From NCBI GenBank assembly GCA_022565355.1, contig JAIUMU010000003.1, positions 119,989-183,988 on the forward strand: DNA of 64,000 nt. Direction: 5' to 3'. This DNA comes from Idiomarina sp. (lineage in GTDB: Bacteria > Pseudomonadota > Gammaproteobacteria > Enterobacterales > Alteromonadaceae). The stretch's first letter is position 1. Every line of letters begins with the position of its first letter. This document shows, piece after piece, positions 16,073-50,766 of the stretch. The position numbers and the translations under genes were made by a program. Under the pieces are notes generated by a model. The model saw only the letters and a list, made by a program, of their open reading frames with translations, was not told the DNA's origin and made no database searches.

Positions 16073-16073
16073 C

Positions 16074-17336: not shown

Positions 17337-17347
17337 TTTAGGAGGAA

Positions 17348-21096: not shown

Positions 21097-21105
21097 GATA
21101 CGAAT

Positions 21106-21324
21106 ATGTTCACGGTAAATCATCAAACCAACAGAATCAGCCCAGTTACGACGAAAAAATTCAGTGAGTTGGATTTTTCCGAGCGCAAGCATCTTCAGGA
21201 ATGGTTAGCACACGAACCTTCCGCACTCGGTGAAGAGTTGTTGATTATTCAGAAGGAGTTCGATGGCTTTGATGACACCCGTGAGCAATTCCGTTTAACG
21301 ACTTTCTCTGAGGAGCATCTATGA
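21106..21324 (+). pseudogene. N-terminal stub of a NucS/DUF91-like PD-(D/E)xK protein
   Basis: 72 aa. FSERKHLQEWLAHEPSALGEELLIIQKEFDGFDDT matches the usual N-terminal region of such proteins. It ends before the expected (R)xDLL...ExK nuclease core. Confidence 0.4.
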
Positions 21325-22022: not shown

Positions 22023-22557
22023 TGAACCAATTGATTTAAGTAAGATCGATGCGACAAAAATTATTGACGTGCTCTACGGCTTCTTTCATCGCGATTTTGT
22101 TGCTGAGCGAACCTATTTAGCAAATAACATTTATATTAATCCGCGAAGCCATCGAAAAGACGAAGGAAAAGAGCTGGATTTCTGGCATTTAACCACGCGT
22201 GAAGATAAGGAACAGGTTTGGGAGAATGGCCAGCGAGTGACGAGATCAAATGGTCGCTACCCTGATTATGATCGAGGAAGTCGAATCGAATGGGTCAAGT
22301 TGATTCTTACGAACCATGCTCATGAGTCAATTAAGTTGTTTTATCACCGAGAAACTAATCGTAAACGTAGTATTCGTTTGTACTTGTGGGCATCTGATGA
22401 AGACTTTGTGGTGATACTACAAAAGTTGGGACGCGCGGATTCGTTCTTGGTTACGAGTTTCTTCGTTGACCACGATGGAAAGCGAAAAGACTTTGAGGAG
22501 AGGTTCCAGAATTACCTAGGCGGAGATCCCGACTTACAAGACTGTGAGTGGTTTTAA
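22015..22557 (+). CDS. hypothetical protein, translationally coupled to the DUF3800-like gene
   Basis: 180 aa with an 8-nt overlap with the preceding gene. I recognise no family. Basic, with an FWHLTTRED...RIEWVKLIL...IRLYLWA core. Confidence 0.6.
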   Translation: MLSEPIDLSKIDATKIIDVLYGFFHRDFVAERTYLANNIYINPRSHRKDEGKELDFWHLTTREDKEQVWENGQRVTRSNGRYPDYDRGSRIEWVKLILTNHAHESIKLFYHRETNRKRSIRLYLWASDEDFVVILQKLGRADSFLVTSFFVDHDGKRKDFEERFQNYLGGDPDLQDCEWF

Positions 22558-22875
22558 GATAGTGTAATAGAAAGGCAAAAGGAATGGTCGCCTATTGTAG
22601 ACCGGGCGATACGGTCACCTCTTTCTACTTAATAGTAGGTGAGCGCGTGAATTATGGCCTAAATCAGAGTAAGTTGTCAATGTTTATTGCCGCAGCGTTT
22701 CTTTGACCGGTGCTTGACTGAGCAAACTTTTATTTTATACAAAACTTTATAAATCAATATCTTGGTGCCGCGCATTTGTTTGACTGTAAGACACTGGTGC
22801 TGTAGATCACTAAGTAATCAAGCACGACGAGCGAGCGGTGATGTTTGGCTTTTGGAAATCAATTAGAGGGATATT

Positions 22876-25800
22876 ATGGTTAGTAAAACGAACGAACAAG
22901 CGCTAGAGGCGGCAATCGAGAAAAGTCTGACCGGTACTTGTTTAGAGGAACTGAGTGCGGGTGTGCAATTTGCTGAGCCTGACTATATCGGTGCGTTTTA
23001 CAAAATTGGCCAAGCCTCTGACTTTAACAGCCAATATGCTCTCGATGAGCGTTACTTTTGGGCGTTTCTCGAAAAAACACAAGAGCCCGAGCTCGAAAAA
23101 CTTAAGCGCAACAACCCGACAGACTGGCAACGAAAACTGCTTGAACGGTACGACCGCCTAATCAAAAAGCATGGTGTTCTGCACCTGCTCAAAAAAGGTT
23201 TAAGTGTTGATGATGCGCATTTTAATCTGCTTTACCCAGCGCCGTTAGCCAGCAGCAGTGAGAAGGTGAAGCAGAACTTTTACGAGAACATTTTCAGTTG
23301 TACGCGTCAGGTTCGGTATTCTCACGCAAACCCGCTACAAGAGATTGACATGGTGCTGTTCATTAACGGCATCCCGCTGGTTACGTTAGAACTTAAAAAT
23401 GCTTGGACCGGACAAACAGCGCGATACCATGGTCAAAAGCAGTATCGCGACGACCGTGATACAACTCAGCCACTTTTGAACTTTGGTCGCTGTTTGGTTC
23501 ACATGGCTGTGGACACCGATGAAGTTTACATGACGACCAAGTTAGCAGGGAAAAGTACTTACTTCTTACCCTTCAATAAGGGTCATAACCTCGGTCAAGG
23601 TAACCCTCCTAATCCTAAGGGGCATAAGACCGCTTATTTGTGGGAGGAAGTGTTCAGCAAAAAAAGCCTCGCGAATATCATTCAGCATTTTGTGCGTCTT
23701 GACGGTTCCATTAAAGATCCGCTAGCAAAGCGAACGTTATTCTTCCCACGCTATCACCAACTGGACGTTGTAAGAAAGTTGGTTGCTCATGCTGCTACGC
23801 ATGGAGTTGGCCAAACTTATTTGATTCAGCACTCTGCTGGTTCGGGTAAATCCAACTCCATTACGTGGGCAGCATACCAACTCATAGAAACCTACCCTGC
23901 CTCTACAGAAGTAGCTGGTGGTAAAGGTCTCGACGAGCCTCTGTTTGATTCAGTAATTGTAGTGACCGACCGCCGCTTGCTTGATAAACAACTTCGCGAC
24001 AATATTCGCGAATTCTCTGAAGTTAAGAACATTATTGCGCCAGCTTTTAAATCATCGGAGCTAAAGAAAGCGCTAGAGAACGGCAAAAAAATAATCATAA
24101 CGACGATTCAAAAATTTCCGTTCATTATCGACGGCATTTCAGATCTCAGTGATAAGCGTTTTGCTGTCATCATTGATGAGGCCCATAGTTCTCAATCAGG
24201 CTCTGCTCACGACAATATGAACCGGGCTATTGGTAAAGCGGACGTAGAGGAAGCTGAAGACGCGCAGGATAAAATTCTGCAAGCAATGAAATCCCGTAAA
24301 ATGCGCGGAAATGCATCGTACCTAGCATTTACAGCAACACCTAAGAACACTACTTTGGAAAAGTTTGGCCAACGCCAAGAAGATGGTTCATTTAAGCCTT
24401 TCCATCTCTATTCAATGAAGCAGGCTATCGAGGAAGGGTTTATTCTCGATGTACTGAGCAATTACACAACCTATAAGAGCTATTACGAGATTGAGAAATC
24501 GATTGCTGAGAACCCTGAGTTCGATACCAAAAAGGCACAAAAGAAGCTAAGAGCCTATGTCGAGCGGAGCCAGCAAACGATCGATACCAAATCCCAAATT
24601 ATGCTCGAGCACTTTATCCCTCAAGTCGTAAATGCAAAAAAATTACGGGGTAAAGGCAAAGGCATGGTAGTGACGCAGAATATTGAGACTGCTATTCGTT
24701 ACTACCGGGCGATTAAGCACATTCTCGAAGAGCAAGGTAATCCGTTTAAAGTGCTTGTTGCCTTTTCCGGCACAAAAGAAGTAGACGGCATTGAATACAC
24801 AGAAGCTGATGTCAACGGCTTTGCAGAAACCGACACCAAAGACAAATTTGATACCGACGAATACCGGTTGCTTGTTGTCGCCAACAAGTACCTGACTGGT
24901 TTTGACCAACCAAAGCTGTGCGCGATGTACGTTGATAAAAAGCTCGCTGGTGTACTCTGCGTTCAGGCACTATCACGGCTTAACCGCAGTGCGCCAAAAC
25001 TGGGTAAAAAGACAGAGGATTTGTTTGTTCTCGACTTCTTTAATTCGGTTGATGACATTCAAGCAGCATTCGAGCCGTTCTATACTGCCACGTCATTAAC
25101 TCAAGCCACAGACATTAACGTACTTCATGAGCTTAAAGACAGCATGGACGATTCAGGTGTCTACGAATGGTATGAAGTTGAGGATTTTGTTACCCGTTAT
25201 TTTAATGAAGAAGACGCGCAAAGTTTAAGTCCGATTATCGACATTGCCGCTGCTCGCTTCAATCAAGAGTTGGAACTTGAGCACGAAGACAAGGTTGATT
25301 TCAAAATCAAAGCCAAGCAGTTCGTAAAAATATACGGTCAGATGGCTTCAATAATGCACTACGAAATAGTGGCTTGGGAGAAGCTGTTCTGGTTCTTAAA
25401 ATTCTTAATTCCGAAACTAAAAGTTCTAGATCCTGACGCTGATGCAATTGATGAGTTGCTCGAATCGGTAGATTTGAGCTCATATGGGCTACAACGAGTG
25501 AAGCTAAATAGTTCTATTAAGCTGAGCGATGATGAAACTGAGGTAGACCCACAAAATCCTAATCCACGCGGTGCGCACGGATCCGAAAAGGAGACGGACC
25601 AGCTAGACGAGATCATCCGCACATTCAATGACCGTTGGTTCCAAGGCTGGAGTGCAACGCCGGAAGAACAGCGCGTAAAATTTGTGAATATCGCGGAAAG
25701 TATTCGTCAACACCGGGATTTTGAGTCCAAGTACGCGAACAACCCTGACCCACACAATCGCGACTTGGCATTCCAAAAAATACTGAAAGAAATCATGCTA

Positions 25801-25902
25801 CAACGGCGCATGGACGAATTAGAGCTATATAAGCTGTTTGCAAATGACTCTGCGTTTAAAGCGTCGTGGACGCAGAGTATGCAGCGGATGGTTGAGGGTT
25901 GA
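22876..25902 (+). CDS. hsdR: type I restriction endonuclease subunit R
   Basis: 1008 aa. N-terminal PD-(D/E)xK motif (IDMVLFINGIPLVTLELKN), helicase motif I (SAGSGKS) and motif II (IIDEAHSSQ). Confidence 0.95.
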   Translation: MVSKTNEQALEAAIEKSLTGTCLEELSAGVQFAEPDYIGAFYKIGQASDFNSQYALDERYFWAFLEKTQEPELEKLKRNNPTDWQRKLLERYDRLIKKHGVLHLLKKGLSVDDAHFNLLYPAPLASSSEKVKQNFYENIFSCTRQVRYSHANPLQEIDMVLFINGIPLVTLELKNAWTGQTARYHGQKQYRDDRDTTQPLLNFGRCLVHMAVDTDEVYMTTKLAGKSTYFLPFNKGHNLGQGNPPNPKGHKTAYLWEEVFSKKSLANIIQHFVRLDGSIKDPLAKRTLFFPRYHQLDVVRKLVAHAATHGVGQTYLIQHSAGSGKSNSITWAAYQLIETYPASTEVAGGKGLDEPLFDSVIVVTDRRLLDKQLRDNIREFSEVKNIIAPAFKSSELKKALENGKKIIITTIQKFPFIIDGISDLSDKRFAVIIDEAHSSQSGSAHDNMNRAIGKADVEEAEDAQDKILQAMKSRKMRGNASYLAFTATPKNTTLEKFGQRQEDGSFKPFHLYSMKQAIEEGFILDVLSNYTTYKSYYEIEKSIAENPEFDTKKAQKKLRAYVERSQQTIDTKSQIMLEHFIPQVVNAKKLRGKGKGMVVTQNIETAIRYYRAIKHILEEQGNPFKVLVAFSGTKEVDGIEYTEADVNGFAETDTKDKFDTDEYRLLVVANKYLTGFDQPKLCAMYVDKKLAGVLCVQALSRLNRSAPKLGKKTEDLFVLDFFNSVDDIQAAFEPFYTATSLTQATDINVLHELKDSMDDSGVYEWYEVEDFVTRYFNEEDAQSLSPIIDIAAARFNQELELEHEDKVDFKIKAKQFVKIYGQMASIMHYEIVAWEKLFWFLKFLIPKLKVLDPDADAIDELLESVDLSSYGLQRVKLNSSIKLSDDETEVDPQNPNPRGAHGSEKETDQLDEIIRTFNDRWFQGWSATPEEQRVKFVNIAESIRQHRDFESKYANNPDPHNRDLAFQKILKEIMLQRRMDELELYKLFANDSAFKASWTQSMQRMVEG

Positions 25903-28193: not shown

Positions 28194-28427
28194 ATGGAAA
28201 ACACTTACCTGACTACTGAGGAATTATCCAAGCGCATCAAATATGATGCTCGCACCATTCGCGAACGCCTTAAAGATTCGGTTCTACTAGAGGGTATTCA
28301 CTATATACGGCCGTTTGGAGGAAGAAAAATCCTCTATGTTTGGGAGGCTATCCAAAAAGATATAGGAAAAGCTTCAACGTCGTCGTATTCAATTCCAATG
28401 GCACGCGGAGGTTTAGCTCATGGGTAG
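28194..28427 (+). CDS. excisionase/AlpA-like DNA-binding protein
   Basis: 77 aa with an HTH-like TTEELSKRIKYDARTIRERL. Overlaps the integrase start by 8 nt. Confidence 0.6.
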   Translation: MENTYLTTEELSKRIKYDARTIRERLKDSVLLEGIHYIRPFGGRKILYVWEAIQKDIGKASTSSYSIPMARGGLAHG

Positions 28428-29616
28428 AATTTACACTCGAAAAGAAACGAATAAATTAGTTATCGACTTTTCGTTCAAAAATAAGCGCTGCCGAGAGCAA
28501 ACAGCGCTTACCGACACAAAAGCTAACCGAAAAAAAGTTGAGCGTTTCTTGGAAACTATTGAGGCTGAAATCACGCTTGGTACATTCGACTATGCCAAGC
28601 ACTTTCCAAATAGTCCTCGTGTTGAGCAATTCAGGGCAATGCAAGCACACTCAAGGTTTGTGGATACACCGCTCTTCGCGAATTTCGCTCAGCAATGGTT
28701 TAGCGAAATGTTGATTCAGTGGCGAACTTCACATTCAGACACAGTACAAAACTCGATGACCAAATACTTAATTCCCACATTTGGGGGCAAAGAAGTTGGC
28801 CGCATCACCAAAGCGGATATTTTGGAGTTCCGGACCTCTCTCGCCAAAGTTAGAACCCGGAGCAACCAATCATTATCACCGTCGCGGATAAACCACATCA
28901 TGACGCCATTGCGCATGATTTTGAATGAAGCAGCCAACCGCTTTAATTTTAGCTCACCTTACCAGGGAATTAAATCACTTAAAGTTCCACGTACTGATGT
29001 TGAGCCATTTGGCCTTGATGAAGTGCAGCTTATTATCAACTCGGTACGGCCTGACTTTCGCAACTACTATACCGTGCGTTTTTTTACTGGCATGCGAACC
29101 GGCGAGATTGATGGCCTGCAGTGGGATGCTGTCGACTTCAATCGTCGACAAATTATGGTCAAGAGAACGATTGTTAATGGCGAAGTCCAGTACACTAAAA
29201 ATGATGGCTCTTTTCGGGCGATTGAAATGAGTCAGCTCGTATTTGATGCCCTTAAGCGTCAATACGATGCCACCGGTAATCAGTCCTATGTGTTCTGCAC
29301 GCGAACCGGCACGCCACTTTCCCATAACAACGTGACGAAGCGCGTCTGGTATCCCCTACTCCGTCATTTGGGTATTCCAAAACGCCGTCCCTACCAAACG
29401 CGTCATACGGCAGCCACGTTGTGGCTCGCTGCAGGGGAAAGCCCTGAGTGGATAGCTCGTCAGATGGGGCACACGACGACTGAAATGCTGTTTCGCGTCT
29501 ATTCACGCTATGTGCCGAATCTAACACGCCAGGACGGCTCTGCCTTTGAGCGACTTCTAAAGGAGAACTTTGATTGCGCTCACCACCAGAAAAAGGAGCG
29601 GACTGATGATGCTTAA
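28420..29616 (+). CDS. tyrosine site-specific integrase
   Basis: 398 aa with an arm-binding-like N-terminus. Catalytic residues: TGMRTGE (Arg), RHTAATLW (HxxR), GHTTTEMLFRVYSRY (His...Tyr). Confidence 0.9.
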   Translation: MGRIYTRKETNKLVIDFSFKNKRCREQTALTDTKANRKKVERFLETIEAEITLGTFDYAKHFPNSPRVEQFRAMQAHSRFVDTPLFANFAQQWFSEMLIQWRTSHSDTVQNSMTKYLIPTFGGKEVGRITKADILEFRTSLAKVRTRSNQSLSPSRINHIMTPLRMILNEAANRFNFSSPYQGIKSLKVPRTDVEPFGLDEVQLIINSVRPDFRNYYTVRFFTGMRTGEIDGLQWDAVDFNRRQIMVKRTIVNGEVQYTKNDGSFRAIEMSQLVFDALKRQYDATGNQSYVFCTRTGTPLSHNNVTKRVWYPLLRHLGIPKRRPYQTRHTAATLWLAAGESPEWIARQMGHTTTEMLFRVYSRYVPNLTRQDGSAFERLLKENFDCAHHQKKERTDDA

Positions 29617-29935
29617 TTCTCAATCATTCACGCCCACAGTGATTCAAACCATACAGCACACGCAGCGTGACTTTGCAGGGCCGTTGGCGCAGCACCTGGT
29701 TGATTCACTCCATATTCAACAAGGTAATTCGCTTGTGCCCTATCTTGGCTATGGATTCGAATCCTCCAATCAAGATGCTCTTGAAAGTTGGGTTTACATG
29801 GTTTGCACATCATTGAAGATTCCATTTTCATCGGCGAGCCTCTCCACTCTTGAGAGTATTCTAGCACCCGCGCTAGATGCGTTGAGAAATGAACGGACGC
29901 TCTCGCTTGATATCTGCGAGGTGACTTATGACTGA
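29606..29935 (+). CDS. hypothetical protein
   Basis: Start set at ATG 29606, with AGGAG 7 nt upstream; it overlaps the int stop. 109 aa, no recognisable family. Confidence 0.5.
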   Translation: MMLNSQSFTPTVIQTIQHTQRDFAGPLAQHLVDSLHIQQGNSLVPYLGYGFESSNQDALESWVYMVCTSLKIPFSSASLSTLESILAPALDALRNERTLSLDICEVTYD

Positions 29936-30392
29936 TTCGAATCACCGTCATCACACAAGCGCTGACCGACACGGTCAGCGCCGCGTTGCCGGGCATTTGT
30001 CGGCAAACACACTTAGGCCTCGGCAACATGCGACGCTTGCCTACATCACGATTCAAGAAGCAGCGGCAATGCTTAACGTGAGCGAGCGCACCATCACACG
30101 CTGGATTAAAAAAGACGCCGTCGTCACCTTCAAAAACGGTCATCGCCGGCTGGTCTGTCGCGACTCACTTGCACGATTGACCGACAAGTATGACGACAAA
30201 CGCACCGACACCAATGCACCAGATGACGCAACTTTTACCAATACGCTTTTGGATATTCATGAGCTAATTTCATTGTTAGTGGCGCTTTATCATCCTGAGC
30301 AATTATCGGATTTAACCCGAAAACGCGACATTCAAACGCGCGTTACTGAACTTTGTACTGCCAAAAAACACACCGGAGGCACTCATGATTGA
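29928..30392 (+). CDS. excisionase-family HTH DNA-binding protein
   Basis: ITIQEAAAMLNVSERTITRWIKKDAV matches the excisionase/MerR-type HTH pattern. 8-nt overlaps with both neighbours. Confidence 0.6.
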   Translation: MTDSNHRHHTSADRHGQRRVAGHLSANTLRPRQHATLAYITIQEAAAMLNVSERTITRWIKKDAVVTFKNGHRRLVCRDSLARLTDKYDDKRTDTNAPDDATFTNTLLDIHELISLLVALYHPEQLSDLTRKRDIQTRVTELCTAKKHTGGTHD

Positions 30393-31614
30393 TTTTGATA
30401 CCTACGCGCATGATGCAGGGCGGTTTTTAGACCGTGAGCGTGTCGCGCAAGCACGCGCATTGATGGCAGAAGCGCGTTATATGAGCCGTCGCCGATTAGG
30501 GCTATTTCGCGACCGTCTCGAGTACTCTCATGAATACCAGCAAATGCTCGCATTCACGGCGGCTTATCTCGACATGTCGGGCGATGATGTGCTCGCACTC
30601 ATTCAATTTACGGACGAACAATCGCCGCTGGAATTTTTATTCTCACTCACTTACCTTACTTTTGCATCCCACAATCTAGGGCCGTCTGAGATTGATGGCG
30701 TGCCTATTCCGCGCCCAGATCGAGGTGATGATGCGACGTTTGATGCACCGCAGCTGCATAGCGCATTACATGCACAGTTTCCCATTCGTCTTGGTGATTA
30801 TCGCCGCGATATTGATTTTGTTTTGTGTCTAGGTGGTCATGAAATGGGGATTGAAATTGATGGCGCTGCCTTTCATGGTGATGACAAAGAAATACAACGC
30901 GACTTATGTTGTGAGCTCTGTTTTGCCGGCTATCAAATCCCGCTCATTCGCATTCAAACCGCAGCGCTAACCTGCACGCCGTTTGAACTCATGTTTCATG
31001 TGATGAATCACGCATTTGAAAAATTACCACTCGACCCGATTCGCCCAGCGGAACAAGAAGAAAAAGCATACCGCTATATACTGACCGCTGCGCACGACAT
31101 CCCGATGCTGTCCAGTTTTGTGGCTTCAGCGTTCGATTACTATTTTCGTGCGGCGGTTGTAAGCTCTATTAAAACCGGAATCGTCGAATCCAAGGCGCCT
31201 AAGTTTGCATTATTTAAAAACAACAGAAAAGCGAAAAGCGATTTCATCGCGTTCACAGTCACATTTGGCTCTATGCGCGCTAGGCTGGAGGTCACCGATA
31301 ATGCGATTATCGTGAATTCCGCTCTTAACCTGACGGCGCAGATGCTGATTCAGGGCCTGATGGTATTTTTCAATCAGTTAAGTTCGAAATATCGTTTTCG
31401 GCTCTTCGATATGGACGCGGGTGTTCCACTGCATTTGATTACATTTAGCCAAGCTGAGCGAACCGCTTCGCGTATTGCATTAGTGCGTAAGCGGCGTTTT
31501 CGCGGTGGCAATATCCTCATCGATGAACTTAATCAAATCGAGAGCCATAATCGTCACGGGCTTATGTGTGTGGGTGAGATCTCCTCCATGGATGAAGATG
31601 AAACTTACGATTAG
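30385..31614 (+). CDS. hypothetical protein with DUF559/Vsr-like endonuclease-fold segment
   Basis: 409 aa. DIDFVLCLGGHEMGIEIDGAAFHGDDKEIQRD...GYQIPLIRI resembles the D...E(I/V)DG..H...D..R core of DUF559-type nucleases. Confidence 0.45.
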   Translation: MIDFDTYAHDAGRFLDRERVAQARALMAEARYMSRRRLGLFRDRLEYSHEYQQMLAFTAAYLDMSGDDVLALIQFTDEQSPLEFLFSLTYLTFASHNLGPSEIDGVPIPRPDRGDDATFDAPQLHSALHAQFPIRLGDYRRDIDFVLCLGGHEMGIEIDGAAFHGDDKEIQRDLCCELCFAGYQIPLIRIQTAALTCTPFELMFHVMNHAFEKLPLDPIRPAEQEEKAYRYILTAAHDIPMLSSFVASAFDYYFRAAVVSSIKTGIVESKAPKFALFKNNRKAKSDFIAFTVTFGSMRARLEVTDNAIIVNSALNLTAQMLIQGLMVFFNQLSSKYRFRLFDMDAGVPLHLITFSQAERTASRIALVRKRRFRGGNILIDELNQIESHNRHGLMCVGEISSMDEDETYD

Positions 31615-31646: not shown

Positions 31647-31680
31647 AAGCCCCGAATTACTATTTCGGGGCTTACTTATT
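31647..31680 (+). terminator. rho-independent terminator ending the int operon
   Basis: Stem aagccccgaa / ttcggggctt with a 7-nt loop, followed by a T-rich tail. Confidence 0.6.
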
Positions 31681-31938
31681 CCCTTACGCCTCGGCTCTTA
31701 GCTTTTAAGCACCTGCCTGACTCTCCTCACAGTCCTATCGCTCTCGGAACATTCTTGCCGTGCGAAACTCGTTTTGTAGCACCCCATGAATCATCAAAAT
31801 TGCATGAGTATTGTTCAATTTTTGCCGATTTACACCGTAGAACCCCTAAAAAAGGGTGCTCTACGGGATTTAATACTCGGTGCAAATCAACAACACTATT
31901 GTCATCGAATCCACATCCGAATTATTTCGAGAGACAAA

Positions 31939-32472
31939 ATGACAAAAATTGCACTCAAAAAAATACACTTTATTGATGTCAGCCTGCCAACTGGGTTCGC
32001 ACGCCAGAATCAAAAAATGGCCGAGGCACTATTGGAGCAATCCAGTCTCGAAACCCTACTCGAGGGGCTGCGTGCCATTCAATGTAATCGACGGGTTTAT
32101 GCACTCGAAAAGTTTAATCTTATCCAAGCGCTGCAGCAATTAGCCCCTAGCCTCACGCTTAACTGCTCAATAATCACAGTTAGGACTGTCAGTGATGTTA
32201 AAACTCGGGTAGCCCATGAGATGACTATCGCCAGTGTCAGCTCTGTAGCGCCGATTTTAATCGCCGAGTTCGAGCGCGCGAACAAAGTACCGCATTTGCT
32301 TTGCAAACAGCAGCTTATTGATGTGCTCGGCGTTAGTCGCAGTGCGCCCGGAAAACATAAGGAAAAATTCATTCGGAGTTCTCATTCCGAGGCGCCTGCG
32401 CAACCGTCAGGAAGTTTGGCGCAGCAACTCGCCCACATCCCACCAGAGCGAAAAGAGGATAAGCGGTCATGA
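31939..32472 (+). CDS. hypothetical protein, possible ParB/HTH-like
   Basis: Start uncertain: the ORF is open from 31786, and ATG 31939 gives MTKIALKKIHFIDVS. ATGA overlap with the next gene. ParB-like resemblance is weak. Confidence 0.45.
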   Translation: MTKIALKKIHFIDVSLPTGFARQNQKMAEALLEQSSLETLLEGLRAIQCNRRVYALEKFNLIQALQQLAPSLTLNCSIITVRTVSDVKTRVAHEMTIASVSSVAPILIAEFERANKVPHLLCKQQLIDVLGVSRSAPGKHKEKFIRSSHSEAPAQPSGSLAQQLAHIPPERKEDKRS

Positions 32473-34721
32473 TAGAGCGAGACGCACTAAAGAATGCCAT
32501 GCACGAGGAGTTTGACATTTTACCCTCGCATGAAATGTCAACTTACGCATCGCGTATGATTCGATTTTTACGCGCCCTTTCATCGCTTGCGTATATGAGT
32601 GCATACCAATCAAACGCATACCAGAAATACGCTGATGCGCTCAGCGAGGAGTCTGAATCAACAATTAATTTGCGATTCTCGCGCCGCGAGCTCTACAACA
32701 GCCTCACTAATGCGCCATTTTTTTCTACGCTGTTGCTACTCGATTGTGACGATAACGCATGTTCGTATTACTTGTTATTGGCGCATCTATACTGCGCACG
32801 CGCTTACAGTGAATATCGGCCCTACCTGCGTTTCTATCAGGCACTCTTATCTCGACATGCCAATGCTCTAATTATCTCAGTCGGCGCCCTAAAAACCTAC
32901 ACGCTCGACGAACTGCGCCTCGTGCTTACATCGCTCGCGGAGCAAAAGGATGATTCAAAACTGCGTGACCTCGCCAGTTTCTTGCGTCCACCCAAGCCGG
33001 CTAATGAAAAGAAAGGGCCCAGCATGCTGAGTACTTCGAATCACTCAGAACGACCCATTCATTCCGATAGCGAGGGCGCCCTGAAGTACGTCGAAGTATC
33101 CACTGATACTGGCGAGACCATAGGCTCGTTTTTAGACTGGACCCCACATTTACAAAAAACACAAGAACAAGAGCGGGCGCGTTTCAAGCGGGCCAAAGGT
33201 GGTTTGAAAAATGCGCTTTACCATGCCGAGTCACCTGCCGTTTGGTCATCGATGGCCGCGACACCGTTTGAACTCACACGCCTACTATCTTGCACCGACG
33301 CGGCTTTTATTGACTCAGATGTCGGCGCATTTGCAAAAGAGAGCGCCCCAATTTTTGTCATTTTGTTTTTACGCTTACTCGGCTTATCTGAGCCCGGTGA
33401 GTTAATGCTGATAAACGCGGGCTCCCCGCGATATCAGCCAACGACACAGCCAAATACGCTTGTTTACCATATCGACAAAACGACGAGTCGTATAGACGCG
33501 CATGTCATTCTAAACGCAGAACTACTGAACGTTGCTAAACCTAACACCAGTGATTCTCGCGTGCATTATAGCGCCCAGTCGTACATAGAAATTTCGCTCC
33601 CACATCCGATCCCGCTATTACTAAAAGCGGCATTTGTAAACGTCACCGCAACGCAGCGAAATCATCGGACGTTATTCGAGGCACTCCACCTCAACAAAAA
33701 AGCATATCGTTCAAAACTACGTGCATATATTAAAAATGCTGCTCTGCATGAAACGGGGGTGTCCATCGCAGGTGTCGAGAGAGCATTTTTTCATTACGCG
33801 AAAGAGCAACTGCCAGAGGTTGTATTTAATTTCCTGAGTGGGCGAAGCAGCGTGCAGCACCATTATATCTCTATAGAGAGGGCAACTATCGAAACCGAAC
33901 TAAGGGCGGCATGGTTTAATTTTCTTGATGATGCTCACATCGTACGGCCAAGTAGTGATAGCGATAACACAGTTTTTGGCGCCTATCAGGATTATCATGA
34001 CGAGGTGGGTTCAGCGAATACGTTACGAAATGAGTCATTCATCGCCATGCTGAGTCATTACAGTGGGCTAGTACAAGATAGTAACCTCAGTAATTTGGCT
34101 CGACAGAACTTTTGCAGCCTCTATTTGTATCTCAGAGTAGCGTCAACTGTCGGGCTGCGACCGGTTCGCGAGCCGCTTCCTGAATGGTCTGCCGTCGAAC
34201 CATCCCTGGGTGTTTTCAGCGTCGCCGACAAACGCGTTCATCATAGTGACGAGCGCCGCCTCATCGTCCTACCGCTGAGATTGAATGCCCTCCTACGCCA
34301 TTGGTCAAAAGCGGTTCACGTTATATCGATGGATCTAAACCTACCAGCACCTCATGCGCCCCTCATGCATTACTGTCAGGAACATCAAGGTTGGCAGTAT
34401 TTGAGTGCACGTTATGTAAATTCGCTATTGCAGAGGGATTTCCAGGAAGACCTCCACAATCGGAGTTTTCGCCATGTCGCCGCATCAAAGAATCTGCACA
34501 CCTTATTAGCAAACGGGAAATTTACTCAATCGGCTTTTAATTTGTTGATGAATCATGCCCGCGGCGGCGTATCGACCATGAACCAGCGCACTCTTGTCAG
34601 CATAGCGACCATGGTGCGGCAGCAACGCGCAATGATTGAATATAGTGAGACCGATGCAGTCATCGTTGATTTCGATGAACGTGTCATGGCCGTATTGCAG
34701 GAGTTGGCTTATGGGATTTGA
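32469..34721 (+). CDS. large (750 aa) tyrosine-recombinase-like protein, catalytic motifs partly degenerate
   Basis: GLRPVRE (box I Arg-like) and RSFRHVAAS (HxxR-like). An NHARGG segment follows without an obvious catalytic Tyr. Translationally coupled on both sides. Confidence 0.5.
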   Translation: MIERDALKNAMHEEFDILPSHEMSTYASRMIRFLRALSSLAYMSAYQSNAYQKYADALSEESESTINLRFSRRELYNSLTNAPFFSTLLLLDCDDNACSYYLLLAHLYCARAYSEYRPYLRFYQALLSRHANALIISVGALKTYTLDELRLVLTSLAEQKDDSKLRDLASFLRPPKPANEKKGPSMLSTSNHSERPIHSDSEGALKYVEVSTDTGETIGSFLDWTPHLQKTQEQERARFKRAKGGLKNALYHAESPAVWSSMAATPFELTRLLSCTDAAFIDSDVGAFAKESAPIFVILFLRLLGLSEPGELMLINAGSPRYQPTTQPNTLVYHIDKTTSRIDAHVILNAELLNVAKPNTSDSRVHYSAQSYIEISLPHPIPLLLKAAFVNVTATQRNHRTLFEALHLNKKAYRSKLRAYIKNAALHETGVSIAGVERAFFHYAKEQLPEVVFNFLSGRSSVQHHYISIERATIETELRAAWFNFLDDAHIVRPSSDSDNTVFGAYQDYHDEVGSANTLRNESFIAMLSHYSGLVQDSNLSNLARQNFCSLYLYLRVASTVGLRPVREPLPEWSAVEPSLGVFSVADKRVHHSDERRLIVLPLRLNALLRHWSKAVHVISMDLNLPAPHAPLMHYCQEHQGWQYLSARYVNSLLQRDFQEDLHNRSFRHVAASKNLHTLLANGKFTQSAFNLLMNHARGGVSTMNQRTLVSIATMVRQQRAMIEYSETDAVIVDFDERVMAVLQELAYGI

Positions 34722-37593
34722 TGACGTGGTTGTGCTGCTCTCGTCGGAGCGCACAAATGTTCGAGAGTCCGCCTATTTTGCATTTGAAACGATTCAAAAA
34801 ATCTGTCCGCGCGCGTTTCAGTCTGAGCCTAAGATCCCAAACGATTATTTGGTCAGTCGTGCCCGAACGATTTATGAACGGGCCAGAGATTATCCCGAAC
34901 TCGATGCGCTGCGGCTTGTACTAGTGCATCTATACCGAAGCTTAAAAGACGCCAACCCTGATTTAATAGAGCCTAAGCAAATTTTCCCAGCCCATCGCGA
35001 GCGCCCCGTCATTCACAAGGGTAATCCTTCGTGGCAACTGCAAATGCATCTGCACCAGGCTATCGAGACGGCATTATCTCAGTTGCATAGGCTATCGCCA
35101 GATGTCCGACAGATGACATTAATGCTCGCCCTTGCTCGCCAATATGGTGTTAGCGACGTTGACAGTTTACTCGCAATTCTGGCGCCCGACACGACCATAA
35201 GCTATTTACCCGATGCGGCCCGTGCCATCTGCATCACCTCGACTGGCGAGAATCATTTTTTGGATGCGCCTGCACTTGCGATGTGGAAAAACCTTAGTTC
35301 GTATGTACCGAAGAGCTTGAAGCATATTCATCAAAACTTTGCAGGATGGATTGATTATCAGCGAACCCAAGAGTCAGCGTTTCATTTGCTGAATTGTTCA
35401 CTCGAAGACGCGCTTCTCGCGCTGTCGTTTACCCACCAGAGTCTGGCCTCGGCCAATCTCGGCTCGCTCACCAAACCGCTATCACATTCAGCGCTTATCT
35501 ATGCCCTCACAGGCCAGACGATAACGACAGATTACGAAGTGCCAGAAGAACCTCTGCGTCGACGCCGTAAACGGCTCCCCCAATTTACAAAAATTGCCGA
35601 TTTAACCCCCACTCTTCAGCGGCCATTTAGTTTTCACAGTGAGCTCGGCCAAGAGGATACGATACTCATCAATGCCATTCGCGACGCAGTAAAAAAATAT
35701 GCGAGCGATGACAAACGACAATCGAGGGCATCTCGGTTCTATACCGACCTGACAGCGACACTGCTTAGGCTAATCAATGATGCGCATGCAAATCCGCAGA
35801 TTAGCGTTGTTGCATGGTATGTGGGTTTGTACTGTACTGACCTAATGCTGCACGGAAGCGCTCATAAAAAGCGGCTTCGTGCCTCAACCATGTTGACATA
35901 TCTATCGCGACTTAGCTCATTTGCAAAGGTGGTATGGACTGATGAGCAACTTATGAGTGATGCGCAACATTCATTCGACGCGCGTCTCGAACTTACGATG
36001 CACGTCGCTGAATCACTGAGCGACTACCTCACTGACAGTGAGTTATCCACGATTATCAATTTTTTCTATTACCTACAGCAAACCAGCGCTACGCTTTTTT
36101 TTGATGCGCAAGCGCTCGAATACTCTGGCGCATTTCCGGCAAATACACGCGCGCATTACATCAGCCCACATGATTTTGATATGACGCGTGAGAAGCTTTT
36201 AGAAACACCTAGCCTTGAACGCGAGCAATTTTGGCACTTCGCAACCCTCTGCTATCGACTCGGCCTGCGTCACGAGGAGGCCGCCAAACTCGCCGTTAAC
36301 GACGTGCGCTTTGACTGTGGCGATTTAATCGTGAGTAATGTGCTGCTCCGTAAAACTAACAGAGCGGTTCGTCGAGTCCGGCTGGCTTTTCTCACAACAT
36401 CCGAGCATGTGGCGCTAGAACAATATGTAACAGTTCGAAAAGCACGCGAGCTCGAATCGCTGTTTGATTCCCATGTCATTGACGCACTCCAAAACGAATT
36501 TCTCACAGCTCTACGTGACACTTCAGGTAACTCAGAAGCGGTCATCCACAGCCTCCGCCATAGCGCAGCGAACAATATTCTGTTCCAACTGAGCCTCTGT
36601 TGCATCTGTAATTTAATGGCCTGTCGTCATCGCTATCTGTTTTTGCAACATGACGTATTTGAAGAGCAGCACCTAGACCTAATCAAAAGCGATATTGCAC
36701 AGTCTGGGCGCCAATGCGATCTGTATTTTCCTGTTCTTGATGTGCTCGCTGGGCTACTTGGTCACGTTAGCCCAGCGATTACCATGCAATCGTACCTGCA
36801 TCTATTTCATCTACTCGCGTTTGAGCTAAATGCCTGTCGCGAATTGCCCTTATCCTTGAAAGCATTCATGCAGTTGGTTCCGCGCAATCAATATCGTTAT
36901 GAACACAAGGCTCGGTACAGGAAATGTATGAGCCACGGCTCTGAAAGCGCGAATCGTTACGCATTTAAACACGTCGTTCGCGGCTCCAATAATCAGCAAT
37001 ATCCTCTCAAGGCCGCTCCGGCGAAGAAACGTGTATCGACCAAACCCTTATCGTTCAGTGATTATCTGCTGGCATTACATCGTTACCGGCATGAGCCGCA
37101 GAGTCACTTCGCTAACAACGAGCTGCTCGACCATTTTGACCGGCTTGATGGAATGCTGGGAACCGAGTTTTACGATCGCTGGAAAAGCCGGGATTTCCCA
37201 GTGTGGCTGCGCTTGTTTGAGCGGCTTACAGATTTAAATTCGAACGCTGTGAACAATGACGCACTTGCTACTCTCGCTGCATTGCACGCCTCAAATACTG
37301 TCACGACGATTCGACAACTGAAGCGTTGTCTACGTGCATTTGAAATTCTCGGTTTACATGAACTCCACTTTACTGCTCGAGTGCCAGAAAATAAGCCACT
37401 TTCTCAAGCATGGTTAGAGGCTATTTCTGACGCGGCTCATCATGTCGATTGCCATGAGGACGAACAAGCGACGTCACCCGTGCTCGCGCTGCGACCCCGC
37501 GGTTTACGTTACGCACCTTGGAGCCATTTGCCGACCATCATCAAATTGCATCAGACCTACCAAACGTTGCCGGATAAGACGAGAATATTATGA
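34711..37593 (+). CDS. giant (about 960 aa) tyrosine recombinase
   Basis: Start at ATG 34711, with CAGGAG 7 nt upstream and an 11-nt overlap with the upstream stop. Central catalytic domain: GLRHEEA (Arg), IHSLRHSAAN (HxLRH), LLGHVSPAITMQSYLH (His...Tyr). Long N- and C-terminal extensions. Confidence 0.75.
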   Translation: MGFDDVVVLLSSERTNVRESAYFAFETIQKICPRAFQSEPKIPNDYLVSRARTIYERARDYPELDALRLVLVHLYRSLKDANPDLIEPKQIFPAHRERPVIHKGNPSWQLQMHLHQAIETALSQLHRLSPDVRQMTLMLALARQYGVSDVDSLLAILAPDTTISYLPDAARAICITSTGENHFLDAPALAMWKNLSSYVPKSLKHIHQNFAGWIDYQRTQESAFHLLNCSLEDALLALSFTHQSLASANLGSLTKPLSHSALIYALTGQTITTDYEVPEEPLRRRRKRLPQFTKIADLTPTLQRPFSFHSELGQEDTILINAIRDAVKKYASDDKRQSRASRFYTDLTATLLRLINDAHANPQISVVAWYVGLYCTDLMLHGSAHKKRLRASTMLTYLSRLSSFAKVVWTDEQLMSDAQHSFDARLELTMHVAESLSDYLTDSELSTIINFFYYLQQTSATLFFDAQALEYSGAFPANTRAHYISPHDFDMTREKLLETPSLEREQFWHFATLCYRLGLRHEEAAKLAVNDVRFDCGDLIVSNVLLRKTNRAVRRVRLAFLTTSEHVALEQYVTVRKARELESLFDSHVIDALQNEFLTALRDTSGNSEAVIHSLRHSAANNILFQLSLCCICNLMACRHRYLFLQHDVFEEQHLDLIKSDIAQSGRQCDLYFPVLDVLAGLLGHVSPAITMQSYLHLFHLLAFELNACRELPLSLKAFMQLVPRNQYRYEHKARYRKCMSHGSESANRYAFKHVVRGSNNQQYPLKAAPAKKRVSTKPLSFSDYLLALHRYRHEPQSHFANNELLDHFDRLDGMLGTEFYDRWKSRDFPVWLRLFERLTDLNSNAVNNDALATLAALHASNTVTTIRQLKRCLRAFEILGLHELHFTARVPENKPLSQAWLEAISDAAHHVDCHEDEQATSPVLALRPRGLRYAPWSHLPTIIKLHQTYQTLPDKTRIL

Positions 37594-38801
37594 GCATCAT
37601 CATTAGTACACATCAAACGCTAAACTATCTGAACGCGCTGTTAAGCACTGCGCGTCTTTTAGACACAAAAAAGGCTAGCAGGAGTGAGCGTGTTCAAGAT
37701 GCGCGAGAGCGCGTCGCCATATTTTTCTGTTCTCAATCACAATCCGTGCGATTAACGTCATCCATACAGTACAAATGCGCCCAAGCCACGTTTTCAGTGA
37801 AGAATCATGGCGACTGCATTGCGTCTGATTCGGCCTATGAGATTTCAGCAACCGGACTCTGCCATATCATCGAGAATCTCGAAGCGCACGACTACCTAGA
37901 TTTGACCATTTCCAATGACGAACACCATCTCATCATTCGTGGCGCACATGCTCAATCCGCAGACCTCTTCGCTCAAACGAAACGGTTTGCCATCGCAAAA
38001 TTTGGCAATCAAACGCGGTATAAAGAAGTCCTGACGCCTATAGTCGTTCCGGCCCTATACGAATTTACCCTTGAAGAAAATCGCGGCAAGCTTTCTATTA
38101 CTGCGTCTGATGCAAAAAAACTTCAAGCGTTGTACAGAGTTTGGGAGCTGCTTCCGAAGAGCCGAAATTTCCCTTTCATACTCCGCACTGGCGTGGGTCA
38201 ACTCTATGCAGAAACTAATTTTGCATCGGTAAAACTCTCGCCGCAAGCAGCGCACATGGAATCGTGCCGCTCTGAAATAACAAGCGCAGAGATCCGCGTG
38301 CTAGTCAACTTAATTGACAGCTTTACGAGCCCTAGTCATCAAAAAGTACCTACTATTTTACTTAGCGAGCGATTTGTGTGTTTTTCCTACCACCAATTCC
38401 GAGCGCGTCTACTCACATTGTCGGACCAACGTATGACGACACCACGTCATGAGAGAGATGATGACTGCATCCATCTAAGTAGCGATACCCTTCGGGAGCG
38501 GCTGAAAGCACTTCACATCACCACAGACAAAAAAAGAGATTGGGTAAAAATGACATTTTATCCTGACAATCGCCTACTCCTCGAATTTAAAGACCATGGG
38601 GAAGCTTCGAACGAAATGACATTTATAGGCGGATTAACCAGCACGGTAGAAGAGTCGGTCTCTCGAGAGTATCTATATCGAGCCCTAGATTTGAGCCCAA
38701 ATGAAACTATTACGATATGCGGCTTGCACAACAAAAGTAACGTATTTACGCTGCACTCAAATTCATGCGCTGTGTTGGTGCCAAAAATTCGTAGGTCATA
38801 A
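37590..38801 (+). CDS. hypothetical protein with DnaN (beta sliding clamp)-like sequence pattern
   Basis: 403 aa with an ATGA overlap with the recombinase gene. By eye it parallels E. coli DnaN along its length. N-terminus: MSIIISTHQTLNYLNAL vs MKFTVEREHLLKPLQQV. C-terminus: SREYLYRALDLSPNETITICG...CAVLVPKI vs NVSYVLDVLNALKCENVRMML...AYVVMPMRL. Confidence 0.45.
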   Translation: MSIIISTHQTLNYLNALLSTARLLDTKKASRSERVQDARERVAIFFCSQSQSVRLTSSIQYKCAQATFSVKNHGDCIASDSAYEISATGLCHIIENLEAHDYLDLTISNDEHHLIIRGAHAQSADLFAQTKRFAIAKFGNQTRYKEVLTPIVVPALYEFTLEENRGKLSITASDAKKLQALYRVWELLPKSRNFPFILRTGVGQLYAETNFASVKLSPQAAHMESCRSEITSAEIRVLVNLIDSFTSPSHQKVPTILLSERFVCFSYHQFRARLLTLSDQRMTTPRHERDDDCIHLSSDTLRERLKALHITTDKKRDWVKMTFYPDNRLLLEFKDHGEASNEMTFIGGLTSTVEESVSREYLYRALDLSPNETITICGLHNKSNVFTLHSNSCAVLVPKIRRS

Positions 38802-38948: not shown

Positions 38949-40352
38949 TTAACTTCGTGCTAACTGTACCGCCTTTTTGTACCACCGAGAAACCCATTTC
39001 TCCTTCTTGTCTTCTAACCCGACGCCCTTTACAAGCTTCTCGTACCACTTCTTCAATTTTAACTCGGAGTCTGGTCGAGCCGCGTCTTTTCCGATTTGAA
39101 ACATAAACGATAAGACCACCTGTCGAACCATCCTATCAATCTTTACCAAGCCTAACGGAATGGAAGAAATAGAGGGAGACAAATCGCCGTGTAATATATC
39201 ACTGCGTAACTTGTAGAGCTGCCTGAAGTCATCACGTAACCGCTCCGCCTCCGAAGTATCAACGTACCCTCCAATAACGGTTAAGGCGGCAGCCCTATTC
39301 GAAACTATATTCTTGACACCTTTATTCAGCTTTTTGAATGTCAAAAGTCTTTCAAGACACGTCACATATTTGACTATACGTACAGCAGTATTTGTCTCTC
39401 GAATAGCATCACCCAGCCAACACTGAGCATCCAATAGTCGCTCAACCGTTGCGTATTGCTTGCTGTAATCAAAGCTTAAACTTACACACATACTCTGAAT
39501 GTCTCGGAGCTCGGTAAACTCGCCATCATGAAACTCAGACCAAAAGCGCGCTGGTATGCCAACATTTCCCCTAGACCCTCTAAAGGTGAAACGACAGTAA
39601 TTATTCTCTACTCTGTATATTTCGTCAGACTTGTTAACCGTCGGTATTTGAAAGCCAGCATTCATTCCATCCGAATGCGTTATTGAGGCAATCAGATGAA
39701 GCAGACTCAAAACATGCAAAGACGCCTGAGTAGCCAGCTCACGAGCGACCGAGTAACTATAGACCGAGGGGATCTCAACCAAGGCAACCCACTCATAGTT
39801 ACCATAGTTGGCTACGCACTCACTCCACAGCTCCGCGTCTATATCACTTTTACTTGGTCTTTCAATCTTACCGAGGTGAGCTTGTAAAGCGATTGAGTTC
39901 ATAAGAGTTACACGCTCAAATGATATTTCTACCGCCTCGTCACCAGCGGAGGTAATGTTACAGGGCACGAATACCGTATGGTCTCGGAGCTTTTCAGTTA
40001 TCCTCTGCTTTAAAATTGAAGTGAAATCAGCATCAGTTTTACACTCACTCAGCTGCCCATTACACAAGTCGGTGAATAAATTGAGAACCTCCTGTCTAGC
40101 ATCACCTATCGAAACCTGCTTGTGCCACCTTTGTTTTTCGAGGGCTTTATCTGCAAGCACACACAACGTCTCGTATGCTTCGTCACCTATATGAACATTT
40201 CCTTTTTCTTTGTGCTTAATATACGGTTTGAATAACAATGAGCCACCGCTTTCCAAGTAGTCCATCCGACCATTTCTGTTGATAAACAAGTCCATCTGCT
40301 GAACGGCTCTTGCTAGTAACCTTTGCTTCCCCAATACAGCCTCCATTCTCAT
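38949..40352 (-). CDS. ApeA-like HEPN-domain protein
   Basis: 467 aa. The C-terminal region carries LYKLRSDILHG, an RSxxxHG form of the HEPN Rx4-6H motif. Stand-alone gene, convergent with the recombinase operon. Confidence 0.5.
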   Translation of the reverse strand: MRMEAVLGKQRLLARAVQQMDLFINRNGRMDYLESGGSLLFKPYIKHKEKGNVHIGDEAYETLCVLADKALEKQRWHKQVSIGDARQEVLNLFTDLCNGQLSECKTDADFTSILKQRITEKLRDHTVFVPCNITSAGDEAVEISFERVTLMNSIALQAHLGKIERPSKSDIDAELWSECVANYGNYEWVALVEIPSVYSYSVARELATQASLHVLSLLHLIASITHSDGMNAGFQIPTVNKSDEIYRVENNYCRFTFRGSRGNVGIPARFWSEFHDGEFTELRDIQSMCVSLSFDYSKQYATVERLLDAQCWLGDAIRETNTAVRIVKYVTCLERLLTFKKLNKGVKNIVSNRAAALTVIGGYVDTSEAERLRDDFRQLYKLRSDILHGDLSPSISSIPLGLVKIDRMVRQVVLSFMFQIGKDAARPDSELKLKKWYEKLVKGVGLEDKKEKWVSRWYKKAVQLARS

Positions 40353-45917: not shown

Positions 45918-45934
45918 TAGCAAACGAACTCATC

Positions 45935-46111
45935 ATGTCTGCCTCTGCAAACCGAAGTAAAGGTGCAAAAGGGCCTGATGAGTGGCTTCCACCCAATGAC
46001 GCATTTCATTGTCAGTACGTCACGCGGTATCTACGGATACTAATTTTGTACGATTTCGCTGATGAAGCTCGACAAAGGATGCGGAATCTTCAAAATAATA
46101 TGTGTCGATAA
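45935..46111 (+). pseudogene. C-terminal remnant of an HNH/DUF1524-type nuclease
   Basis: SANRSKGAKGPDEWLPPNDAFHCQY matches the N-x-x-K-G...W-P-P...C-x-Y tail of DUF1524/GmrSD-type HNH proteins. Only 58 codons remain, preceded by stop codons. Confidence 0.6.
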
Positions 46112-50428: not shown

Positions 50429-50717
50429 AGAAACCTAGTTTCATTTAATCAGACGGTGTTCAGGATGATTTCGAAACGGTAGGAATAAGCCCCACAGTGT
50501 TGAAATTTGTCTACATCAAAAGTCAGGTTTTTTCGCCAAACTAAATTTTTTTGTCGCGGCTAAAGGTCAAAAAATTGTGCTTGGAAAACACATGTATGTG
50601 CCACTATTTTGCATAGAATGATCTAAATCGGGGTGAAATATGAAAGGGGAATACTACTGAATGCCTCGTAAGGCCCTGTTTTTACTATATATACCGATTG
50701 ACCCCCAACTACCCTTC

Positions 50718-50766
50718 CGCCCTCCGGAGGCGGAGGCCAGAGGTTCGAATCCTCTCGGGTGCGCCA
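50718..50766 (+). repeat. 49-bp direct repeat of the tRNA-Arg 3' part (attR of island 1)
   Basis: cgccctccggaggcggaggccagaggttcgaatcctctcgggtgcgcca is identical to 14777-14825. It starts in the anticodon stem. Confidence 0.9.

Follow-up and report, generated by a model that had tools for sequence, protein, structure and literature searches.

By textbook accounts, tyrosine recombinases are enzymes that suffice by themselves, and sliding clamps serve to tether polymerases. Why proteins of both kinds should appear in one operon is the question raised by a locus from a metagenome-assembled genome of Idiomarina sp., located in a 64,000-nucleotide stretch of contig JAIUMU010000003.1 (the window, to which all coordinates without a locus name refer). 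Four translationally coupled genes, here termed g1 to g4, occupy positions 31939-38801 on the plus strand and are predicted to encode a small basic protein, a recombinase-like protein devoid of the catalytic tyrosine, a catalytically complete tyrosine recombinase of 960 aa and a protein with a beta-clamp fold. An initial annotation had singled out this gene set; its observation is real and goes beyond chance, and its interpretation is partly supported. We consider the operon to be, with a probability of roughly 40%, the recombination engine of a multi-subunit tyrosine-recombinase mobile or integrative module that carries its own clamp.

A four-gene operon downstream of a single-copy palindrome

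The operon and its upstream region comprise the following features.

31786-32472, plus strand: open reading frame (ORF) listed for g1, long form
31835..31866, no strand assigned: imperfect palindrome found by repeat search, arms CCGTAGAACCCC / GGTGCTCTACGG, 12 nt each
31939..32472, plus strand: g1, small basic protein of 177 aa, isoelectric point (pI) 9.7, with a probable C-terminal helix-turn-helix
32469..34721, plus strand: g2, 750-aa partner with a tyrosine-less recombinase-like C-terminal domain
34636-37593, plus strand: open frame listed for g3
34711..37593, plus strand: g3, 960-aa tyrosine recombinase with a complete set of catalytic residues
37590..38801, plus strand: g4, 403-aa protein with a predicted three-domain bacterial beta-sliding-clamp fold

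As the initial annotation had read from the sequence, the genes overlap by ATGA (g1/g2), by 11 nt (g2/g3) and again by ATGA (g3/g4); the ATG at 34711 gives the 960-aa g3 product. A terminator-like hairpin followed by Ts (~31650-31680) lies upstream of the operon, whose G+C content of 48% is higher than the 42-43% of its island neighbours. Translation of g1 probably starts at 31939 and not at 31786, because the g1 homologues (29-37% identity) align only from Met52 onward and because the palindrome, which is conserved in position, lies inside the longer reading frame; this frame is probably unused. A size of 180-228 aa had been proposed for the g1 product: the longer frame exists, but the probable protein has 177 aa.

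The palindrome has an 8-nt AT-rich spacer and is situated 73 nt upstream of the g1 ATG. Inspection by eye located palindromes 61-73 nt upstream of g1 also in four related loci described below (L001, L005, L009 and L011), with lineage-specific arms. Across loci the arms measure 11-13 bp and the AT-rich spacers 7-8 bp; the feature is distinct in the window, L005 and L009, whereas L001 and L011 have weak versions of it. A second copy was absent from every locus searched, and searches with the arms yielded only half-sites at chance level. The palindrome at 31835..31866 is therefore treated here as a candidate only, for either an operator or a core-type recombinase site.

g3 is a giant tyrosine recombinase with an invariant catalytic set

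Judged by its sequence, g3 is a bona fide tyrosine recombinase. It matches PF00589 (Phage_integrase) with an E-value of 5e-8 (33.1 bits compared with a cut-off of 27.1) as well as the phrog_216 integrase, and PF00589 scores above the gathering threshold in all four g3 homologues tested (best E 4.5e-11). The complete catalytic set that had been noted initially is borne out: R520, K548, H613, R616, H685 and Y695 are invariant in four sequences that are 39-51% identical, and the same residues are present in the Aeromonas and Acinetobacter relatives introduced below. With all six residues retained across homologues of such divergence, the catalytic competence of g3 is under selection.

The catalytic domain spans approximately aa 475-727 and is flanked by ~470 N-terminal and ~230 C-terminal residues of unknown fold. 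Between R616 and H685 it carries a family-specific insertion of ~45 aa that is common to the Aeromonas and Acinetobacter relatives. Sequence and profile searches of the PDB with g3 found nothing. An invariant FQLSL in g3 was considered as a clamp-binding motif and not counted, as it belongs to the helix after the HxxR box and is partly present in the clamp-less relatives.

g2 is a tyrosine-less partner and g1 a small putative DNA-binding protein

The g2 product combines ~510 N-terminal residues of unknown fold with a recombinase-like C-terminal region of ~240 aa. It has no match in Pfam, PADLOC, PHROGs or the other libraries, and none in the PDB by sequence or profile. With both profiles enriched with distant relatives, hhalign placed 186 columns of the g2 C-terminal domain in co-linear alignment with the catalytic domain of g3 (E 2.6e-4, probability 42%), pairing R564 with R520, the K588 hairpin with the K548 region, R665xxR668 with H613xxR616, and H696 with H685. 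At the position of the nucleophile g2 has Q706/R707, with no Tyr after H696, and the nucleophilic Tyr is absent in all g2 homologues, including Aer_790 and Aci_725. The AlphaFold2 model of g2 is poor (predicted local distance difference test, pLDDT, 51); in this low-confidence model residues 512-750 follow the alpha/beta-hairpin/alpha order of a recombinase catalytic domain, and a Foldseek search with it returned no significant match, the best non-significant ones including Cre, the C-terminal domain of XerD and an integrase. With moderate confidence, we regard g2 as a tyrosine-less recombinase-fold protein, in agreement with its initial description as recombinase-like without the catalytic Tyr.

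The g1 protein (177 aa) contains no recombinase motif. Its earlier designation as ParB-like was rejected: no ParB family is detected among four homologues even at E<=10, and only faint matches to the helix-turn-helix families HTH_17, HTH_23 and HTH_29 occur, in one of the four.

g4 is predicted to adopt a full-length beta-clamp fold

An AlphaFold2 model of g4, built from four sequences, reached a pLDDT of 79 and a predicted template-modelling score (pTM) of 0.77. When it was compared with the PDB by Foldseek, the top 50 matches were all full-length bacterial DnaN proteins (E 1.2e-18; template-modelling score 0.69-0.79 to DnaN of E. coli, Pseudomonas and Enterobacter), and phage DnaN proteins lead the matches in BFVD. 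On the strength of this model, g4 is predicted to have the complete three-domain fold of a bacterial beta clamp. The initial annotation had called g4 a clamp because its sequence seemed, by eye, to track DnaN from end to end; the fold agrees, but the sequence tracking has no statistical support. Identity to DnaN is ~11%, no Pfam family including DNA_pol3_beta matches at E<=0.01, phmmer finds no DnaN in the PDB at E<=10, and the g4 family profile reaches DnaN (7rzm) only at E 0.3, in domain III at the C-terminus and in the correct register. The protein is basic (pI 8.5). A PADLOC match of g4 to TIR (E 0.002, aa 20-121) was taken as spurious, since the region corresponds to clamp domain I in the confident model; g1, g2 and g3 have no match in PADLOC-DB 2.0.

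The four genes form a rare cassette that keeps its order while its neighbours change

Among 1.84 billion representative proteins, scanned exhaustively with HMMER, only four real relatives of g4 came to light. Word-indexed protein searches returned the query protein and one homologue only, two scans of 185,579 GTDB representative genomes did not find the family, and no member was present in searches of INPHARED phages, IMG/VR and E. coli; PLSDB plasmids contained only distant relatives of g3. Flanking DNA of the relatives was recovered via contig look-ups and one metagenome scan. Five diverged lineages have the same four genes in unchanged order next to changing neighbours, and every relative found displays this arrangement with near-equal protein sizes at 27-51% identity to the window proteins, confirming the expectation that the genes would travel together. 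In the fifth lineage (L010) the cassette is cut by the contig end; the protein sizes in the other four are as follows.

L001: g1/g2/g3/g4 of 176/746/961/409 aa
L005: g1/g2/g3/g4 of 175/744/961/396 aa
L009: g1/g2/g3/g4 of 184/745/961/401 aa
L011: g1/g2/g3/g4 of 178/744/973/402 aa

The window copy and its close relatives on long contigs are chromosomal-island copies. Neighbouring genes include an acetyltransferase in L001 and umuDC in L005, L009 and L010; GmrSD_C and HNH genes in L009; and SNIPE/T5orf172, GmrSD_C, HNH, HipA (twice) and Xre/ParS in L011, among them toxin-antitoxin genes. In the window, a type I restriction-modification system lies upstream and a GmrSD remnant together with HipA downstream. 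The umuDC genes are convergent with the operon and directly follow g4 in the L005/L009 and L010 lineages, lie 3.5 kb upstream in L011 (2058-3780) and are absent near the cassette in the window and L001. UmuC is a known clamp client; umuDC as a part of the system was discarded, and the genes are treated as shared island content.

Comparison of L009 and L010 points to an exchange of cassettes. Their umuDC genes are 84% identical at the nucleotide level and their downstream flanks 94%, whereas the cassettes share a single 62-nt match; because the flanks are similar and the cassettes have essentially no nucleotide similarity, the two were exchanged at the same site. An 8.9 kb block shared by L005 and L009 had suggested a mobile unit including umuDC, which was rejected since L010 shares the L005 flank beyond it; the right "boundary" of this block is an L009-specific replacement. 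Both L005 and L010 cease to resemble L009 at one breakpoint (L009 16064). The bases that follow, GCGACCTA (region L009 16060-16072), match without exception the reverse complement of TAGGTCGC, the palindrome arm that precedes g1 in L009 itself; this match was equalled in 3/300 shuffles and may be a recombination scar or chance. Downstream of umuDC, a radical SAM-like protein, a PHP-domain protein and two unknown proteins are encoded in a cluster 94% identical between the two loci (L009 17628-21425, L010 5779-9624), which may be another cargo system of the island.

These contexts suggest a role in defence or DNA surveillance, in which the clamp-like ring, loaded onto or sliding on invading or replicating foreign DNA, would recruit g2 and g3 to trap or cut it via a covalent 3'-phosphotyrosyl intermediate, with g1 acting as repressor or sensor. 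Wherever enough sequence is available, the cassette has defence and toxin-antitoxin genes around it; it forms a self-contained operon of patchy, very sparse distribution and fast divergence, no flanking attachment (att) sites were found around it, and cassette-level replacement at one locus between close relatives is typical of defence hotspots. Mobile elements, however, accumulate in such islands too, and g3 keeps the residues for religation, not for cleavage alone. Apart from the spurious TIR hit no PADLOC model matches, and domain content lends no support. We know of no defence system with a tyrosine recombinase as effector, and none was found in the literature either. We regard a defensive role as rather unlikely.

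Clamp-less relatives of g2 and g3 reside on Acinetobacter plasmids

A tblastn search with g3 produced weak matches, at the same relative position, in very large genes annotated as "tyrosine-type recombinase" from Acinetobacter plasmids and one Aeromonas caviae record. Each matched recombinase (1019-1120 aa) is the third gene of an overlapping trio, preceded by genes for proteins of 209-234 aa and ~725-790 aa. The g3 profile detects the trio recombinases at E 1e-7 to 1e-10 and the g2 profile the middle proteins, also without the tyrosine, at E 8e-5 to 0.04; the small proteins have no detectable relation to g1, and the clamp profile found no g4-like gene in six-frame translations of the trio loci. 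The trios share with the window cassette the gene order (small, tyrosine-less ~750 aa, catalytic ~1000-1100 aa), the overlaps and the ~45-aa insertion, and differ in lacking g4, in their unrelated small protein and in their plasmid location, often beside rep/oriV. The profile matches indicate a true, if distant, homology of their large proteins to g2 and g3. Because these profiles detect both large trio proteins, the tyrosine-less partner included, the pairing of a dead with an active recombinase is ancient. The trio proteins are annotated only as hypothetical and "tyrosine-type recombinase/integrase" (e.g. WP_094069346/WP_070153152/WP_154320135), no paper describing the clamp-less trios was found, and the g2/g3 superfamily appears undescribed.

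Plasmid comparison shows the A. towneri-type cassette (plasmid p19110F47-2) to be a discrete 6.4 kb presence/absence unit (L017 3649-10027) located beside the origin region and encoding proteins of 234, 756 and 1062 aa. On the right, the unit is bounded by the base that follows the stop codon of the recombinase gene, and the copies of an imperfect inverted repeat (TTTTATGATCTAACT / AGTTAGAAATAAAA) are set 2-3 nt inward from the two edges. The unit looks like a small element with terminal repeats. A. lwoffii plasmids, considered as an instance of clean excision, were found to carry partial deletions of a related cassette instead. The location of these relatives beside plasmid replication origins and their resemblance to discrete elements with terminal repeats also argue against the defensive role discussed above.

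The trio lies ~2-3 kb from a replication initiator gene in two of three Acinetobacter lineages, in one of them also beside parAB, and this bears on a further explanation, in which the operon would serve single-site resolution or maintenance of a circular replicon such as a plasmid or an excised island: the recombinase would act on its own palindrome and the clamp would license only freshly replicated DNA. Self-contained resolution modules have the site beside the operon (e.g. XerS/difSL, Cre/loxP and ResD/rfsF), and one intact palindrome per locus, directly upstream of the operon and without a second copy, would fit such a module. Yet ~2,300 aa of protein is far above the need of any known resolution system, the window cassette and those close relatives that lie on long contigs belong to chromosomal islands, and no replication or partition genes occur among the window-island ORFs scanned with Pfam. 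The Acinetobacter unit has repeats at both ends in place of one internal site, and with weak palindromes in L001 and L011 the feature could be a mere operator. We judge this explanation to be quite unlikely.

The cassette resembles SE, GInt and Tn554 modules in outline but belongs to none of them

No described system encoding a tyrosine recombinase together with a sliding clamp was found in the literature. The closest parallels are operons of tyrosine recombinases in SE (strand-biased circularizing integrative elements, core module IntA-Tfp-IntB-Srap), which come nearest, in GInt genomic islands (GinABCD) and in Tn554 (TnpA, TnpB, TnpC); RIT elements are a further multi-protein type described in the literature. 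SE and GInt carry a tyrosine-less recombinase-fold protein, SE, GInt and Tn554 carry a small auxiliary protein, and recombination by SE and GInt requires all module genes, including those for the tyrosine-less and the small protein (PMC10214605, PMC5385486). Of the SE proteins, IntB is "extraordinarily long", Tfp is tyrosine-less and without Pfam matches, and Srap is a small auxiliary protein; SE termini are 19-bp imperfect repeats with the core operon at one end (PMC9345347). The window cassette and SE are alike in being operons of tightly overlapping genes from Gammaproteobacteria, Alteromonadales among them, in combining a tyrosine recombinase of unusual size with a tyrosine-less partner that lacks Pfam matches and with a small auxiliary protein, and in a core of ~5.5-6.4 kb; the imperfect terminal inverted repeats of SE are similar to the end layout of the Acinetobacter trio. 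In contrast to SE with its two catalytic recombinases, the cassette has one and no IntA equivalent. Its large proteins, of 750 and 960 aa, exceed those of pAQU1 and pBT2436 (~600 and 675 aa), the small gene opens the operon and does not close it, and a 403-aa clamp-fold protein occupies the srap position. No att sites or termini were identified for the window cassette, and when the IntA, Tfp, IntB and Srap proteins from pAQU1 and pBT2436 were searched with the profiles of g1-g4 (hmmsearch), nothing better than E 0.18 was obtained.

GInt and Tn554 likewise combine several recombinase-family proteins with a small protein, and in GInt, GinC lacks part of the catalytic motif and the operon stands at the element end with the boundary at a stop codon. 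However, both possess two fully catalytic integrases, normal-sized proteins and no clamp, and in their gene order the small GinD/TnpC gene comes after the integrase-family genes, of which GInt has three and Tn554 two, unlike the order small, dead, active and clamp of the cassette, which we set apart from GInt and Tn554 by gene architecture. With one catalytic subunit, the small gene first, a clamp at the place of srap and no homology to SE, the cassette is not a member of SE or GInt. We conclude that it represents a new and very rare version of the multi-protein tyrosine-recombinase module, set apart by its dedicated protein of predicted beta-clamp fold. The view of the initial annotation that no nameable module was alike is too strong, as SE, GInt and Tn554 do resemble the cassette. 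The large proteins match no well-described transposon family. Three outcomes had been named that would have told against its proposal, namely another fold for g4, genes that do not travel together, and large proteins belonging to such a family, and none of them was obtained.

The large size of IntB has a bearing on mobilisation or replication as an alternative function, in which g3 would be a relaxase- or nickase-like enzyme acting at an oriT-like palindrome, the clamp would aid DNA synthesis and the island would hitch on conjugative elements. A relaxase-like activity of IntB has been raised by the SE authors (PMC9345347), and MpsA of SGI1 is reported to be a tyrosine-recombinase-like relaxase (PMC9299015). 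Besides these precedents, a single inverted repeat adjoins the genes, and a clamp implies DNA synthesis. The dead recombinase partner, on the other hand, has no explanation under mobilisation, no other transfer or replication function is encoded in or near the cassette, and neither experimental nor comparative evidence points to transfer. This makes mobilisation highly improbable.

With regard to the clamp itself, g4 resembles DnaN in its three-domain fold from end to end and in a C-terminal strand similar to the DnaN C-terminus, and differs in its ~11% identity without a significant sequence match, its basic character and its setting in a recombinase operon that has neither a polymerase nor a clamp loader in its vicinity. 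A mobile element that uses a sliding clamp for target choice is known in Tn7, where TnsE targets replicating DNA via the host beta clamp; Tn7 depends on the clamp of the host and a DDE-type transposase, whereas the cassette encodes its own clamp-like protein with a tyrosine recombinase.

The operon lies within an apparently composite tRNA-Arg island

A tRNA-Arg(CCG) gene is located at 14749-14825; an exact copy of its last 50 nt occurs at 50717-50766 and one of 80% identity at 53932-53981. As the repeat lies 35.9 kb downstream with the operon in between, the operon sits inside a tRNA-Arg island of ~36 kb. The order within the island is type I restriction-modification system, integrase module, hairpin, operon and then mostly unannotatable genes; the two annotated modules are the following.

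15473-25902: type I restriction-modification system of the island
28196-31614: integrase module with an AlpA-like ORF, an Arm-DNA-bind_2 integrase, an HTH_17 protein and a 409-aa protein

The island is suggested to be composite, because the integrase module lies in its middle and not beside the tRNA gene. In this module, the AlpA-like ORF (28196-28422) overlaps the start of the integrase gene (28420-29616), and the 409-aa protein after the HTH_17 protein has no match in any library searched. The restriction-modification locus has methylase-like genes of 420 and 806 aa, a pair of specificity genes and a DUF3800 gene; an unknown gene of 180 aa is inserted before hsdR.

A shorter tRNA-Arg copy at 50924-50957 includes the native downstream flank, and the 5' half of the tRNA gene is duplicated at 14651-14696; the repeats look like tandem or nested islands at one tRNA gene. 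L005 ends in the same tRNA-Arg fragment. Between two att copies lies a unit of ~3.2 kb, bounded by repeats of ~180 nt that are 79% identical (50555-50737 and 53764-53946) and enclose 51269-53315; it carries a gene for a HipA-family toxin (51996-53315, minus strand). A remnant of a GmrSD C-terminal domain at 45923-46105 is 70% identical to the GmrSD of L011, and intact GmrSD genes are found near the cassette in L009 and L011; thus, the islands share modules in different arrangements. Convergent with g4, a 467-aa protein is encoded at 38949-40352 (minus strand) that is not conserved beside the cassette elsewhere and lacks Pfam, NCBIfam and PADLOC matches, with only a faint PHROGs match (phrog_38039, E 0.019). 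Outside the island (58266-62071), a 774-aa protein that combines four Big_5 repeats with an ice-binding-like domain is followed by an OmpA-family protein.

A multi-subunit recombinase may operate with its own clamp

A recombination engine is favoured as function of the operon because the catalytic set of g3 is under selection, the pairing of live and dead recombinases is ancient, the Acinetobacter relatives are element-like and cassettes were exchanged at one site between L009 and L010. The recurrence of the four-gene unit beside different neighbours and the precedent of SE and GInt add to this. The palindrome, with its core-site-like layout and conserved distance upstream of g1, counts as a candidate site, and the end layout of the A. 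towneri unit matches that reported for SEs (PMC9345347). Together, g1 to g4 would form one multi-subunit site-specific tyrosine recombinase machine, in which g3, with its R-K-H-R-H-Y set, would be the sole subunit able to cleave and rejoin DNA. The g2 protein would probably fill the second half-site or the second site pair in the synapse, as is thought for Tfp and GinC, and g1 may be a small helix-turn-helix accessory or regulatory protein, probably binding the upstream palindrome. As a highly diverged beta clamp, g4 would encircle DNA and tether the complex; it might link the exchange of single strands with replication (copy-out), or else bring the complex to DNA that is newly replicated or clamp-loaded, comparable to TnsE. 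The cassette would then be sister to the clamp-less three-gene cassette seen as a 6.4 kb unit on Acinetobacter plasmids. We infer the formation of a physical complex, the DNA site acted on and the mobility of the window cassette, and as pure conjecture add the role of the clamp in tethering, copy-out coupling or targeting.

Several observations weigh against a recombination engine. The weakest point is that neither ends nor att sites nor a second site were found for the window-type cassette. No terminal inverted or direct repeats around the cassette were significant at the five loci; the best candidates are reached by 4-40% of shuffles. A direct repeat in L005 that resembles the umuC 3' end and occurs on both sides of the cassette was dismissed likewise (42/500 shuffles). 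The terminal repeat of the A. towneri unit is AT-rich and marginal by shuffling (19/300), and an empty site with both flanks was not found for the Acinetobacter unit. Neither multiple copies nor an identical copy in a new context were seen, and the extreme rarity of the family is odd for a successful transposon. The neighbours are typical genes of defence or toxin-antitoxin islands, and the palindrome, being intact and present only once, is more what would be expected of an operator or resolution site than of a split att site. Finally, the island is equipped with an integrase/AlpA module of its own and with perfect att repeats of 50 bp from tRNA-Arg, and the cassette is therefore not needed to move it. 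The probability not assigned to the recombination engine, defence, resolution or mobilisation falls to something else.

As a tentative proposal cutting across these functions, the cassette may define a new class, a heteromeric pair of live and dead giant recombinases with a dedicated clamp, in which recombination, transposition or the destruction of foreign DNA would depend on clamp loading and thereby on replication status or DNA topology. The pairing of recombinase and clamp would be surprising to specialists in site-specific recombination or clamp biology, and the g2/g3 superfamily includes cassettes on many Acinetobacter plasmids of clinical and farm isolates. Elements of the SE, GInt and Tn554 type, which are poorly understood, spread resistance genes such as tmexCD-toprJ, mcr-9 and blaGMA-1. 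If the clamp is a working subunit, the cassette would offer a route to how SE, GInt and Tn554 couple strand exchange to replication, and would add a new class of partner to clamp biology.

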